Shown: one piece after another, positions 2,363 through 27,007 of the stretch
How positions within the stretch are numbered: the first letter of the stretch is position 1
Layout: each line of letters starts with the position of its first letter
IMG/VR virus record: IMGVR_UViG_2675903278_000002
DNA: 64,000 nucleotides
Reading direction: 5' to 3' (one strand)
From: a virus
Lineage: Duplodnaviria > Heunggongvirae > Uroviricota > Caudoviricetes
Position numbers and translations under genes: made by a program
The notes under the pieces: generated by a model
What the model was told of the DNA's origin: nothing
The model's input: the letters and a program-made list of their open reading frames with translations, nothing else
Databases searched by the model: none

Positions 2363-3505
2363 ATGTCATATTCAACGTTCCGTTTGGGTGCTAATGATGC
2401 AACCAAAGAGCCTATGTTCCTCGGACAATCTGTCAACGTGGCACGTTACGATCAGCAAAAATACCGTGATTTTGAAAAGTTGATTGAACGTCAATTGTCT
2501 TTCTTCTGGCGGCCGGAAGAAGTTGATATTTCGAGCGATCGTATCGACTTCAACACGAAGCTGCGGGACCACGAACGTCACATTTTTCTGAGCAATCTCC
2601 GTTATCAAACGTTACTCGATTCAGTTCAGGGACGTAGTCCAAATGCAACGCTGCTGCCGCTTATCTCTATTCCTGAACTGGAAACGTGGGTTGAAACGTG
2701 GTCTTTCTCTGAGACTATCCATAGCCGCAGCTACACCCACATTATTCGTGGCATGGTGGACGATCCGAGCATTGTTTTTGACGGTATTGTTACGGATGAA
2801 GAAATCATCAACCGAGCGATCAGTATCTCTGCTGAATATGACAGGCTTTATGGGATGACCTGCGAGCGCCAGTCGTTAGGTGAGAAGGAATTTGAGCGTC
2901 TGTACGTAAATGAATATGGCTGGGAGCCATACCCTTTGCACCGTCAGCTTTTCCGCACGTTGGTGTCCATTAATGCGCTTGAGGCGATCCGTTTCTATGT
3001 AAGTTTTGCATGTACGTTTGCCTTTGGCGAACGGAAGTTGCTTGAGGGTAACACCAAAATTATGCGCTTTATTGCCCGTGATGAAGCTCTGCATTGCGAA
3101 GGAACTGAACGCATGATCCGCTTCATGCGTACCGGTCGCGAAGGTTTATTGTGGAAAGAGATTGCTGCTGATGAAGAAAACGTCATTTACGACACCATGA
3201 AATCAGTCGCCGAACAAGAAATGAACTGGGCAGACTATCTCTTCAAAGACGGTTCGATGATTGGTTTAAACGCGGATATTCTCAAAACCTATGTAAAATA
3301 CCGCACCAATCTGGCTATGAATCGTCTTGGCCTGAAGGCTTTATTTCCAGAGGTTACCACCGATCCGCTGGTCTGGATGAACAAGTGGTTGTTAACCGAC
3401 ACACTGCAAATTGCACCACAAGAGGCAGAGCAAAGCACATATCTGGTAGGTCAGATCGATTCTACCGTGGATAAGGCTTCTCTAAGCCAGTTTGCAGACC
3501 TGTAA
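2363..3505 (+). CDS. nrdB: ribonucleoside-diphosphate reductase beta subunit (NrdB)
   Basis: 380 aa; [48 protein letters not shown] as in class Ia NrdB; directly downstream of nrdA; RBS-like GGAAAAACACATG. Confidence 0.96.
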
Positions 3506-10052: not shown

Positions 10053-10074
10053 TTTGTTCTGGCGTCTGTAATTA

Positions 10075-10131
10075 GCCTGCTTCTGTATATATAAATAACT
10101 ACATATTAATTATTAATATACGGAAGCAGGC
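10075..10131. repeat. long AT-rich hairpin element, copy 1 of 2
   Basis: GCCTGCTTCTG ... CGGAAGCAGGC inverted arms around an AT-rich loop; near-identical element at ~39561-39616. Confidence 0.7.
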
Positions 10132-10213
10132 TGTTTTGTATCAGAGACTCCAGACCTGAACATCACTACAGAATCCACTAGAACCCCTTCCCAGACGCTT
10201 TAAAATCGATTTT

Positions 10214-10468
10214 ATGAATCACTTTAAGGAAACTAACATGTCATACCCGACTAATGTCGTTGCGCTCGTAGAGAGCGATTTTCTGGCCCAGGCCCGTGAA
10301 ATGATGAAAGATCGCGAGCAGGCTTTCAACTTGTACGAATGGGCAATTAAGTGCTTGCATCTTGGGGAGCATCGCGAACTTGTTGAACAGCTTTTAGGTG
10401 AGTTGATTAACGAGGTGTTTGCCTTGAATGTTCAACTACATGGTCGAGAAAATAATCAATCGAAATGA
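10214..10468 (+). CDS. hypothetical protein
   Basis: 84 aa ORF; alternative start at internal ATG ~10238 with AAGGAAAC upstream. Confidence 0.55.
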   Translation: MNHFKETNMSYPTNVVALVESDFLAQAREMMKDREQAFNLYEWAIKCLHLGEHRELVEQLLGELINEVFALNVQLHGRENNQSK

Positions 10469-10469
10469 T

Positions 10470-10998
10470 AGATAAGTACAAACTATTCATAAAGTGAATT
10501 GTAAGTGCTAAGATCTGATAGTTTCCAGTCGTAGACTGGAGACTCGACCTGATGGGTGGGGGTAAGCGTCACTGGCGTCAGGTTTAAAAAAGCTCACTAC
10601 CAGCGTAGAACCGGTGCCGTTTAGGTGTCGGGGAAGGGGGAACCAAAGTGAGCGGAGACAAGGGTCACTTTATGATTGTCGAGTCTGGGGTGTTTCGAGA
10701 GGTTGAATCCAGTACTCCCCTTCATAAAGTGTGGGAAGATCTCGGTTCTGGGGTGCTGTCATCCATAACTTCCCAAGTCTAAGCTGGCAGTAGACTTAGG
10801 CCATAACTTTTCAGGTTATGAAACGACCAGGTTGGTGAGGGATTTTTATACTCACCTCCCTGGGAGAGTATTACCTGAAAAGACAACCTCTCACTTCGTT
10901 CGAGGTGAACTTCACTCACTTCGTTCGTTCAGTTCAGGTTTATAAAAACCTGTTCTGGGAAGTAATTTGTTTATTTTAATAATTATTAACACGCACGC
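10470..10998. other. ~0.5 kb non-coding region with multiple hairpins and short direct repeats
   Basis: No ORF >60 aa; complementary segments (GTAGACTGGAGACTCGAC ... GTCGAGTCTGG), TCACTTCGTTCG x2, GC palindrome CACGCACGCGTGTGCGCACGCGCG at the 3' end; no tRNA cloverleaf found. Confidence 0.4.
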
Positions 10999-11052
10999 GT
11001 GTGCGCACGCGCGAGGAAAAAAATCGGCGCGGCGCTTGATTCAGGAGTTTAT

Positions 11053-14927: not shown

Positions 14928-16613
14928 ATGAATACAGCCCTTTCCATCATCGACGATGCCAACTCAAACACTGCTATCGACTATCGGCAGGAAATGAACG
15001 TCATCCACGAAATTGTGGCCGAGTGCGAGAAAGAGATCGCCTTCATGTATCAGGTACACGACTTCGTTTATGGCGACGAACGCCACAACATGATTAATCG
15101 CCTGCTGAGACTAAACCATCGACCAGATGAAGATCGCTCGCGTTTAAATCGAGGTTGGTTGGATAAAGTCGATCTGGAATGGGTGAAACAGAATATTTGG
15201 GCCGAGTACTGGAGGAAGGTCACGGACATGACTAACGTTTTGCTGATCATGCCAGCTTCCCGTCGAGATGAGTGGCGCGAGCAGTTTATAGAGGGCAAAC
15301 AGGAAGTCATCAAAACTGACAGAACCGGCTACCAGATGAAGGTTAAAGAGTTCGTTGGTGTACCGGAGTTCAAAGCAGAAACGGTCATACCCACGATGCT
15401 TAATTTGCTGAATGACAGGCACAAATATCTCTCTGAGCGCGTGTATGGCTTGTTTAAGGCGCTGAGTCCTGCGCACAAGACAAATAAGACAAACGGTTTC
15501 AGCGAACGTCTGATAATCGCTGACTGCATTTCTGATTTCTGGCGGGACAGCGTTAGTGTGAACTATCGCAAAGAGGACTATATCGACGATCTGCGTGTCT
15601 TGCTTCATTTCTTCGCGCACAAAGAATTTATTACCATCAACCGCACTGCTGAGGTGCTATCAGCTGCGTATCGGGCAAACGACTGCCAGACCGGTGACTG
15701 GATGAACGTCGATGGAAATCTAATGCGCGTGAAGATGTTCAAGAACGGCAACGTTCACTTTGAAATACATCCTGACGTGGCCTGGAAGTTGAATGAGGTG
15801 CTGGCTTACAGTATGCCTGCTGCAATCCCCGCGCCATGTCGCACCGCGCCAAAAACACGGGCACCAAAGCAGTTCGGGTTAATCCAGAAGACGATCTCCG
15901 TGCCGGTTCGCACTGCGCTTCGTGACGGGCGATTAAGCAAAGACAAAGGCGTATGGTACTTCTCTGATTCAGCTCTCCAGAAGTCGCAGGTGGAAGAGCT
16001 TGAGCGCACACTGAGCTTCATTGGCGGCGTGCAGGAGAAAAAGCACTGGCAGTTCCCGTATGAGATCGGCCATACGCTAAATACGATTGTGGCTACCGGA
16101 TTAATACCGGATACAAAATCACACCAGTTCTACCCTACCCCACGCTTGATTGCTGAGTACGTTGCCAGAGCCACTGAATTGAAGTCTGGTGAGAAGCTGC
16201 TGGAGCCTCAAGCCGGACGTGGGGATCTTCTGGCCTATATCAACGCCGATCTGGAAGATGTTACCTGCATAGAAATCGCACCTCTCTTCGCTGATATCCT
16301 GCGCGGAAAAGGGTATACGAACACGATTTGCTGCGACTTCATAAAGTGGTCTGAGGACAACGTAGGTTATCAGTTCGACAAAATCGTTATGAACCCGCCG
16401 TACTCGCTTGGTCGTCATAGAGAGCACACGCTGGCTGCGCTGGGGCATCTGAAAGTCGGCGGGCGTCTTGTAGCAGTATTGCCGGGCACTGCGCCAATAC
16501 TGGACTGGATGACGATGGATAATTACGTTTATGCCAGAGGGAAGTCGTTTACCAACGAGTTTGAAGACACAGGGATCACAGTCAGCGTATACGTTTTCAA
16601 ACGCGTTAAATGA
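14928..16613 (+). CDS. putative DNA methyltransferase with large N-terminal domain of unknown function
   Basis: 561 aa; C-terminal third has SAM-binding-like LEPQAGRGDL and catalytic IVMNPPYS; first ~330 aa unrecognised. Confidence 0.75.
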   Translation: MNTALSIIDDANSNTAIDYRQEMNVIHEIVAECEKEIAFMYQVHDFVYGDERHNMINRLLRLNHRPDEDRSRLNRGWLDKVDLEWVKQNIWAEYWRKVTDMTNVLLIMPASRRDEWREQFIEGKQEVIKTDRTGYQMKVKEFVGVPEFKAETVIPTMLNLLNDRHKYLSERVYGLFKALSPAHKTNKTNGFSERLIIADCISDFWRDSVSVNYRKEDYIDDLRVLLHFFAHKEFITINRTAEVLSAAYRANDCQTGDWMNVDGNLMRVKMFKNGNVHFEIHPDVAWKLNEVLAYSMPAAIPAPCRTAPKTRAPKQFGLIQKTISVPVRTALRDGRLSKDKGVWYFSDSALQKSQVEELERTLSFIGGVQEKKHWQFPYEIGHTLNTIVATGLIPDTKSHQFYPTPRLIAEYVARATELKSGEKLLEPQAGRGDLLAYINADLEDVTCIEIAPLFADILRGKGYTNTICCDFIKWSEDNVGYQFDKIVMNPPYSLGRHREHTLAALGHLKVGGRLVAVLPGTAPILDWMTMDNYVYARGKSFTNEFEDTGITVSVYVFKRVK

Positions 16614-25999: not shown

Positions 26000-26109
26000 C
26001 GGTTGCAACTTATTGATAATGGCGGTCACAATTTGATTCTTTTCTATAAGAACCCGTTGATCGCCACTACTCCCCTCCCATACCAGCAATCACATCATTA
26101 AATATCAAT

Positions 26110-26960
26110 AGGTTATGGTTGTTTATACAAATAAGAAAACAACTAAATAACAGATCAACGAAACGTCAACGCTTTCACCCGATTTGGTCTAAAAAATTGA
26201 CGTTTTCACACATCACTTCTTATACCCGTAACTCTACGCAGCAGACATCGCCACAGCGTCCAATTTTCACCACAGACGACCCAACACACTACCAACAAAA
26301 ACACACGCTCAAAATCGCTCCCGTTGCGTTACACAACCATATAAACAACTTATTTTCAGGCATAACAAAACAACTAAATAACACACATGCCATTTCCAAA
26401 AACAACCAACCTCTTTATGGCAGGCTACCGAAAAGACCCACCTCTTCTCCCCAGGCTACCGGACAACCAACCTAACTTTCACAGGCAATCCGAAAACATT
26501 CATACGCGCGATACCCACGACACGCCATTACCCAAACAGCGAAGAAACACCAGAATCACTGAACCCCCAACGAAGCCTGTAACCGCAAGGCTTCTCTCAA
26601 TCCCAAAAGACACGAAACAGAACAATCACGGGAAACGCCATTACCCAACACACGAATAACTACAAAAGCCCTTCACGCACTCCAGACAAACAACTCAAAC
26701 ACAATAACGAAAGGAATCGCCCACCTGCCATTACTCCATACACGGAGAAGAACAATCACCAAAACGACGAGAACACCCCATAGAAGAACCACCGCAAAAC
26801 GAACGAAACCACATACACCGACAGAGAGAACAACACACCCAATTCACCAACAGAATTAGTCGCCGTATAGAACGTTCTGGAAGGAGTGAGTGTTAACGTC
26901 CATAGAGAGGTTGAGACAGATAAAACACGAATAAAACACAACATGTATAGCGAAGAAGCC
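26110..26960 (+). ncRNA. candidate non-coding transcript, A+C-rich and G-poor on the + strand
   Basis: ~0.85 kb strongly depleted in G and T; starts after a class-A-like half motif (AAGAAAACAACTAAATAACA, repeated ~240 nt in); ends at hairpin+T terminator ~26983-27007; ORFs here are low-complexity. Confidence 0.35.
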
Positions 26961-26982
26961 AGGTATGTATAAGTGGGGAGAG

Positions 26983-27007
26983 AAGGAGGGGTGTCGCCTC
27001 CTTTTTC
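26983..27007 (+). terminator. rho-independent terminator
   Basis: GGAGG-GGTGTCG-CCTCC followed by TTTTT. Confidence 0.65.

Follow-up and report, generated by a model that had tools for sequence, protein, structure and literature searches.

What is encoded by a half kilobase that lacks a credible open reading frame (ORF) and lies in a block of phage genes for nucleotide metabolism and replication? The 64-kb stretch of DNA that contains this locus, referred to here as the window, is an SSU5/pHCM2-type phage-plasmid. Its identity is 97 to 98% with the Escherichia phages CMS-2020a, Cyrano, and PhiR41_1 and drops to ~80% with Salmonella phage SSU5 and Klebsiella relatives. The surrounding gene block is on the + strand, and the locus itself is flanked by ORF76 and the gene for RNase HI. 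An earlier note had described positions 10470 to 10998 as a structured noncoding region that perhaps encodes RNA, and this description is supported by a transcript, a conserved structure, and the absence of a tRNA. The note had further assumed that this slot often carries tRNAs or small RNAs; an RNA is indeed present, but the locus is a single large RNA gene that has a promoter of its own, not several small ones. That the locus is a structured RNA gene is, in our judgment, very probable.

Predicted limits, putative promoter, and coding potential of the locus

Positions 10486 to 10985 of the + strand look like a single gene for a noncoding RNA of ~455 nt. The predicted limits of its parts, as well as the coordinates of flanking and related features, are compiled in Table 1.

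Table 1. Features of the RNA locus in the window and of the related loci discussed in the text
Feature	Sequence	Position	Strand	Description
ORF76	Window	10238-10468	+	76 aa, three helices, PHROG 5343; not part of the RNA
Predicted RNA gene	Window	10486-10985	+	RNA from ~10521 to ~10975-10985
Putative sigma-70 promoter	Window	10486-10514	+	-35 TTCATA (10486-10491), 17-nt spacer, TGc (10506-10508), -10 TAAGAT (10509-10514)
5' terminal hairpin	Window	10521-10543	+	GUUUCCAGUC-GUA-GACUGGAGAC, at the predicted transcription start; folded computationally
Conserved structured core	Window	10543-10967	+	~20 predicted helices
44-aa ORF (CYRAN_81 in Cyrano)	Window	10648-10782	+	GTG start
Twin CUCACUUCGUUCG motifs	Window	10890-10902, 10915-10927	+	One per hairpin, located in its loop or upper part
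U/A-rich tail and spacer	Window	10968-10989	+	Likely 3' end region; sharp drop in conservation past 10967
GC palindrome	Window	10990-11013		24 nt, perfect, alternating purine/pyrimidine; followed by GAGGAAAAAAA
RNase HI gene (rnhA)	Window	11053 (start)	+	ATG
Mosaic locus	L138	2775-3240		Klebsiella-type promoter and 5' hairpin on an SSU5-type core
Locus with betT	L009	1965-2835		betT replaces rnhA downstream of the RNA
Locus with hypothetical gene	L007	1826-2788		Hypothetical gene replaces rnhA downstream of the RNA
Locus with UvrD-like helicase gene	L172	2395-3231		Helicase gene downstream of the RNA, on the opposite strand
A2 locus	L163	3329-4416		Unrelated 200-aa gene, then a weak Tad2-like (anti-Thoeris family) gene
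Family B element	L084	2735-3250		K. oxytoca pCAV1099-111; also in L085, L141-149, and L152-161; found in a total of 30 Klebsiella plasmids
More distant B2 and B3 versions	L166, L162 (B3-type)	2755-3215, 2785-3300		
Repeats after the B3-type RNA	L162	3287-3624		Between the RNA and the next gene
Noncoding blocks, Moellerella-type	L086	3393-3761, 3876-4089		75 to 77% identical to L150
CYRAN_40	L175 (Cyrano 24000-68500)	15022-15269		Overlaps three opposite-strand tRNA genes
CYRAN_43	L175	16269-16823	-	555 nt

As proposed in the earlier note, the locus contains no credible ORF: the longest ones comprise 44 to 46 aa, and none starts with ATG. A frameshift or stop codon interrupts the 44-aa ORF in 20 of the 72 distinct relatives, and inspection of the alignment showed that the other + strand ORFs (30 to 37 aa) cross positions with indels of 1 or 2 nt, frame-breaking having been tallied for the 44-aa ORF only. 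We found no conserved reading frame in the RNA locus. ARAGORN predicted neither tRNA nor tmRNA genes in the whole window, in agreement with the lack of a cloverleaf reported previously; the tRNA genes of this phage-plasmid are located elsewhere (39.0 to 39.3 kb in Cyrano). The stem-loops and long-range complementary segments that had been noted correspond to 15 inverted-repeat pairs, and the clearest of the short direct repeats is CTCACTTCGTTCG, which occurs twice at the positions of the twin motifs.

A weak sigma-70-type promoter with an extended -10 element is strongly supported by three observations. (i) In an alignment of an otherwise divergent stretch, T10509, A10510, A10513, and T10514, plus G10505 and T10506, are invariant. 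(ii) The arrangement of a TTTAC-like -35 element, 17 nt, and TAnnAT is common to the A2-, B-, and B3-type loci described below. (iii) The RNA-seq signal increases by a factor of at least 11 from CYRAN_80 to CYRAN_81 (see below). Only 8 of the 12 positions match the consensus, which is why a consensus scan did not report this promoter. In the E. coli-type sequence, the promoter region (10486-10516; TTCATAAAGTG...GCTAAGATCT) resembles a partial duplicate of 10721-10742 (TTCATAAAGTGTGGGAAGATCT) and is also complementary to 10665-10675; the other clades possess neither feature.

The 5' hairpin starts 7 nt past the -10 element. Its stem is kept among clades with a wholly different sequence (CCAGTC/GACTGG, CCGGA/TCCGG, GATTTCGA/TCGAAATC, and GCTGGCAGAT/ATCTGCCAGC), and it may stabilize the RNA, the role expected of such hairpins. 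At the 3' end, a terminator scan did not identify a canonical intrinsic terminator, and the stable species could therefore be a processed fragment of a longer transcript. The 24-nt GC-rich palindrome mentioned in the earlier note is real, but it extends 15 nt beyond position 10998, where the region had been thought to end. This palindrome is conserved in the family of the window RNA (family A), the A2 relatives retaining just the core CGCGCGAG, and accompanies the RNA at loci where other genes replace rnhA. It lies outside the RNA body and may not form part of the RNA gene.

Two further features of the window were recorded. Between the methylase gene and ORF76, a long, near-perfect AT-rich inverted repeat (10057-10148; GCCTGCTTCTGTATATAT...ATATACGGAAGCAGGC), which draws miRNA-like Rfam noise with E values down to 0.0035, is probably a terminator or hairpin. 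Positions 26001 to 27000 differ from the remainder of the window by a GC skew of -0.31 and an AT skew of +0.35 in a single 1-kb bin, in which a weak 16-nt repeat (26129-26163) was the sole repeat found.

Conservation and covariation of the predicted fold

The core is 89 to 95% identical between the window and its SSU5-, Klebsiella-, and Cronobacter-type relatives, whereas the methylase, ORF76, rnhA, and next genes share just 71 to 81% identity, and the flanking genes 73 to 81%, in the same relatives. The noncoding core is thus more tightly constrained than the neighboring proteins. The 70 nt directly 5' of the core cannot be aligned among relatives, and one mosaic locus (L138) indicates recombination at this 5' edge. 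Recombination among phage-plasmids could account for part of the extreme conservation.

The RNA stretch was detected in 687 of the 72,556 plasmid records of PLSDB (~1%), the carriers being Klebsiella, Escherichia, Enterobacter, Salmonella, Citrobacter, Cronobacter, and Shigella, as well as in 12 phage records and in 232 of 5,426 complete E. coli genomes (~4%); a search of species-representative genomes yielded 2 extra loci only. A copy of the RNA belonging to the host was considered and rejected, since the blastn matches in the 5,426 E. coli genomes were the phage-plasmids themselves alone. The stretch carries no annotation in the matching records other than CYRAN_81 in Cyrano. One candidate divergent homologue (L171; 79% identity) was discarded because nearly every C reads T, which suggests that the assembly was made from bisulfite-converted reads that mimic a divergent homologue and are unfit for comparison.

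The predicted folding energy of the + strand was -169.6 kcal/mol (z = -5.4 with respect to 100 dinucleotide shuffles), and that of the - strand was -138.3 kcal/mol (z = -4.5). To score the 133 predicted pairs, we used controls in which the pairing partners were slid by 1 to 3 columns. In the set of 87 distinct close relatives, standard pairs occupied 99.5% of the cells, compared to 38 to 48% in the slid controls, and changes on both sides of a pair were found in 8 pairs (126 cells) versus 1 to 3 pairs (1 to 5 cells) in the controls. More distant copies, reached through homologues of ORF76, share 82% (L170), 90% (L172, Buttiauxella), and 68% (the A2 group, L163 to L165 and L169) identity. In a diverse set that includes A2, 95.9% of the cells were paired, as opposed to 33 to 51% in the slid controls, and both sides had changed in 40 of 125 pairs, distributed over ~15 helices, as opposed to 2 to 10 pairs. 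Taken together, these alignments strongly support the maintenance of ~20 predicted helices by compensatory substitutions; the fold anticipated from the window is kept across its relatives. The many invariant G-U pairs and the lower folding energy place the RNA on the + strand.

Constraint is also seen in segments predicted to be unpaired. The blocks GAUGGGUGG, UACCAGCG, GGGGA.AGGG.GAA.CAAAG, AGAGGUUG, AUCUCG.UUCUGGGGU, ACAACCUCUCAC, and UUCUGGG are constant even in A2. Both copies of the CUCACUUCGUUCG motif persist in the A2 relatives with minor substitutions only, and the stem of the second CUCACUUCGUUCG hairpin covaries from UGAACU/AGUUCA to GAAACC/GGUUUC.

Expression, gene neighborhood, and a second RNA family

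A transcript of this locus has been published, in RNA-seq data for E. coli LF82 lysogenic for Cyrano, which is 97.6% identical to the window here (PMC9928086, Table 1 and S1 table). CYRAN_81, which lies inside the RNA, is listed in that study as an expressed "moron" with a level 12-fold over the prophage background. Its log2 FPKM values were 6.8 to 6.9 in LB, 9.0 to 9.3 (B1) and 6.9 (B6) in bacteria-only samples, and 8.2 to 9.0 at 1 h and 10.3 at 6 h in macrophages (overall maximum, 10.35), with values of 3.1 to 5.8 for CYRAN_80 (ORF76) and 2.6 to 5.0 for CYRAN_82 (rnhA) (PMC9928086). In these gene-level data for one strain, CYRAN_81 exceeded both neighbors, which were at background, by 11- to 40-fold in lysogens; the signal rose at least 11-fold from CYRAN_80 to CYRAN_81 and fell ~14-fold before rnhA. 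Across five conditions, CYRAN_81 followed the putative repressor CYRAN_45, at about the level of the latter, and the integrase profile paralleled it likewise. CYRAN_81, although listed as a protein, is most likely this RNA. Because the methods of PMC9928086 are silent on library strandedness, the assignment to the + strand is based on covariation and the promoter. Two other Cyrano genes were noted in this context: the moron CYRAN_40 overlaps tRNA genes, so its expression signal is probably tRNA, and CYRAN_43 reached 723 times the background.

ORF76 is found directly 5' of both types of RNA described here and is the sole strictly syntenic neighbor. ORF76 is not coexpressed with the RNA in lysogens. 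Its three-helix model (pLDDT 80) produced no PDB fold match with an E value below 6, and sequence profiles returned noise only; the possibility that ORF76 resembles Rop or another known partner protein that binds RNA was rejected, as neither fold nor profile matches were informative. The gene 3' of the RNA is rnhA in most loci, but betT, a hypothetical gene, a UvrD-like helicase gene, or an unrelated 200-aa gene is found in others (Table 1). This variation shows that the RNA is linked to ORF76 and that its adjacency to RNase H is incidental; the slot between a small ORF and RNase H that the earlier note had pointed out thus exists in the window without characterizing the family. The 3' side of the RNA is a hotspot of cargo exchange. 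The protein encoded downstream in the window has the RNase_H Pfam domain (PF00075) only, and no neighboring protein matched a PADLOC model, so that membership in a defense system was rejected.

In 30 Klebsiella plasmids, a different noncoding element of ~480 nt (family B) occupies the same slot, following an ORF76 homologue of only ~50% identity. It has a promoter (-35 TTTACT, 17 nt, TAnnAT), a covarying 5' hairpin, 12 compensatory pairs among 127 predicted ones, and, internally, a hairpin that precedes seven U residues; more distant B2 and B3 versions also occur. Homology between A and B was not detected by blastn, by nhmmer, or with a covariance model of the A 5' domain; this model retrieved A2 and L170 (E values of 1e-17 to 1e-27) and nothing in B loci. 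We infer that the family B RNA is a functional replacement for the family A RNA. Following the B3-type RNA, L162 carries iteron-like (GAAACGT)x5 and 13-mer (x2.9) repeats as well as an apparently duplicated segment of ~100 nt and an AT-rich stretch, and purine repeats of the CAGCGAAA type occupy the corresponding position in L084 and L085. Moellerella-type relatives are devoid of both RNA families and contain instead an ORF of 113 aa, preceded by a similar TAAGTA motif and a -10-like sequence; the noncoding blocks downstream (Table 1) could represent a third element.

Known RNA classes and possible roles of the RNA

The locus combines covarying structure, a transcript, and a lack of coding potential, as expected of a structured noncoding RNA gene in general, and we compared it with specific classes. 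(i) None of the 4,227 models of Rfam 15, which include GOLLD, ROOL, OLE, raiA, C4, RNAI, 6S, RNase P, group I/II introns, and riboswitches, matched at the gathering score anywhere in the window, and matches at E values of up to 10 were miRNA-like noise only, mostly outside the RNA element; B-type loci had no Rfam match either. (ii) No reverse transcriptase gene is annotated in the neighborhood, as would be expected for a retron msr-msd. (iii) ToxI-like RNAs of type III toxin-antitoxin systems are tandem arrays of ~36-nt repeats upstream of an endoribonuclease toxin gene; the locus contains two-copy short repeats only and no tandem array. (iv) An mRNA for a type I toxin (hok/sok-like) is not indicated, as there is no conserved ORF and the ORFs are not hydrophobic by inspection. 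(v) As for immunity RNAs of the c4/CI type, the best matches of the RNA to the remaining 108 kb comprise 11 to 12 nt, which is at chance level (E value of ~1 or higher). Literature searches retrieved no published description of this RNA.

The last of these comparisons merits detail. Like the c4 RNA of P1/P7, CI of P4, and CA of N15, the RNA is a plasmid-prophage noncoding RNA present in lysogeny and coexpressed with the repressor, and the alternative A and B types at one locus resemble the heteroimmunity of prophage immunity RNAs. Those RNAs, however, measure ~70 to 200 nt and base pair with targets in their own operon, whereas the present one measures ~455 nt and, unlike c4, has neither an Rfam C4 match nor significant complementarity to the phage-plasmid. 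An antisense regulator of phage-plasmid genes was therefore rejected: neither the window nor the remainder of Cyrano contained complementarity above chance. This result speaks against regulation by a classical long antisense RNA, while leaving room for short seed pairing to phage-plasmid targets.

We consider it likely that the locus is a stand-alone gene for a large structured RNA. In the plasmid-prophage state, this RNA would function as a trans-acting scaffold or decoy. Taken by itself, the scaffold or decoy mechanism is put forward tentatively: the RNA would serve a conserved protein or RNA partner, to which it would present repeated invariant single-stranded motifs, namely, the twin CUCACUUCGUUCG, three YCUGGG, and G-rich tracts. 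This reading is favored because the RNA is expressed independently in lysogens, because almost all of its nucleotides are under extreme constraint from host to host, and because it displays repeated motifs. The display of a short repeated motif in hairpins (twin CUCACUUCGUUCG and several YCUGGG) is reminiscent of CsrB/RsmZ and 6S RNA; unlike these, the RNA contains no array of GGA motifs, does not mimic an open promoter, and has no Rfam match. GOLLD, ROOL, OLE, and raiA are similar in that they are stand-alone genes of several hundred nucleotides with many conserved helices and invariant unpaired nucleotides, and GOLLD and ROOL are often phage borne like this RNA (PMC12286853). The RNA differs from these four classes in lacking a match to an Rfam model and in its range, which is that of Enterobacteriaceae phage-plasmids.

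A bolder reading, possible but slightly less probable than a scaffold or decoy, is that of a ribonucleoprotein or RNA-only machine of the dormant state, which would govern the choice between lysogeny and lysis, keep out rivals, or manipulate the host and which would exist in at least two interchangeable, nonhomologous folds at one locus, A and B.

The RNA is unlikely to be a cis-acting leader or attenuator, that is, a structured 5' region that sets read-through to rnhA and early genes, with a stop in lysogeny and read-through in the lytic state. In most loci, the next gene is co-oriented and starts 70 to 100 nt downstream of the RNA; in lysogens, the RNA-seq signal decreases sharply from the RNA to rnhA; the C-rich, G-poor 3' part of the RNA could load Rho; and the internal hairpin of family B precedes seven U residues. 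The gene that would be regulated, however, is not conserved (rnhA, betT, a hypothetical gene, a UvrD-like gene, or the 200-aa gene), ~450 nt with ~20 conserved predicted helices far exceed the needs of known attenuators, and no riboswitch or leader family of Rfam matched.

Marginally less probable still is a replication RNA, in which a persistent RNA-DNA hybrid, as for ColE1 RNA II or T4 oriF/oriG, would prime or activate a lytic origin and be processed by RNase HI. The locus is situated in a replication and nucleotide metabolism block beside RNase HI, and the phage-plasmid encodes T4-like UvsY, a gp32-like single-stranded DNA-binding protein, a RecA-type recombinase (annotated RecA), a helicase, and a primase. 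This RNA resembles RNA II and the T4 transcripts in its size class of ~450 to 550 nt, its elaborate fold, and its position beside an RNase H gene in a replicon with T4-like replication proteins; furthermore, the RNA has G-rich tracts and is followed by an AT-rich spacer and repeats, and a B-type relative contains iteron-like (GAAACGT)5 and 13-mer repeats downstream. Against this hypothesis, RNase H is an inconstant neighbor, and the RNA is constitutively expressed in lysogens, whereas plasmid replication uses RepA, which is encoded ~17 kb away in Cyrano. There is no known origin at the locus, there are no DnaA boxes nearby, the GC skew of the RNA is modest (0.07 to 0.17) with no inflection at the locus, and no RNA I-type antisense promoter faces into the RNA, the sole promoter-like site on the - strand (10527 to 10498) facing away. 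Covariation along the whole RNA also goes beyond what a simple primer would require.

A DNA-level element without a functional RNA, such as a recombination, packaging, or protein-binding site or a sequence homogenized by recombination, is very improbable. Sharp conservation edges, mosaic 5' junctions, the change of cargo directly downstream, and a GC palindrome prone to form Z-DNA or a cruciform would fit such an element, but the compensatory changes, including G-U pairs possible on the + strand only, are unexpected for a site in duplex DNA, and the region is transcribed. Moreover, pac sites are often within the small terminase gene, and the small terminase, ParA, and RepA genes are all located elsewhere in Cyrano. 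Least probable of all is a small protein, either the 44-aa CYRAN_81, annotated in Cyrano and listed as an expressed moron (PMC9928086), or a type I toxin-like peptide, given the GTG start and broken frame of the former and the indels in, and nonhydrophobic nature of, the 30- to 37-aa ORFs.

We therefore describe an RNA gene that had not been annotated before and that establishes a new family widespread in clinical Enterobacteriaceae, with high confidence as to a structured RNA gene and low confidence as to any mechanism. RNAs that are both large and heavily structured are rare; where their roles are known, as for rRNA, RNase P, tmRNA, and group I/II introns, the tasks are fundamental, whereas what several others, such as OLE, GOLLD, ROOL, and raiA, do is, to our knowledge, still open. 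Phage-plasmids are known to spread resistance genes, and among the hosts of those studied here are clinical strains of Klebsiella, E. coli, Salmonella, and Enterobacter. The RNA is found in Enterobacteriaceae, in which genetics and biochemistry are easy. Its expression in lysogens and rise in macrophages offer a tractable entry to phage-plasmid dormancy and to the roles of large noncoding RNAs, and the replacement of A by B at a single locus is a natural swap experiment. If the reading as a ribonucleoprotein or RNA machine were true, the RNA would represent an undescribed class of large, ornate RNA in a very well-studied group of bacteria.
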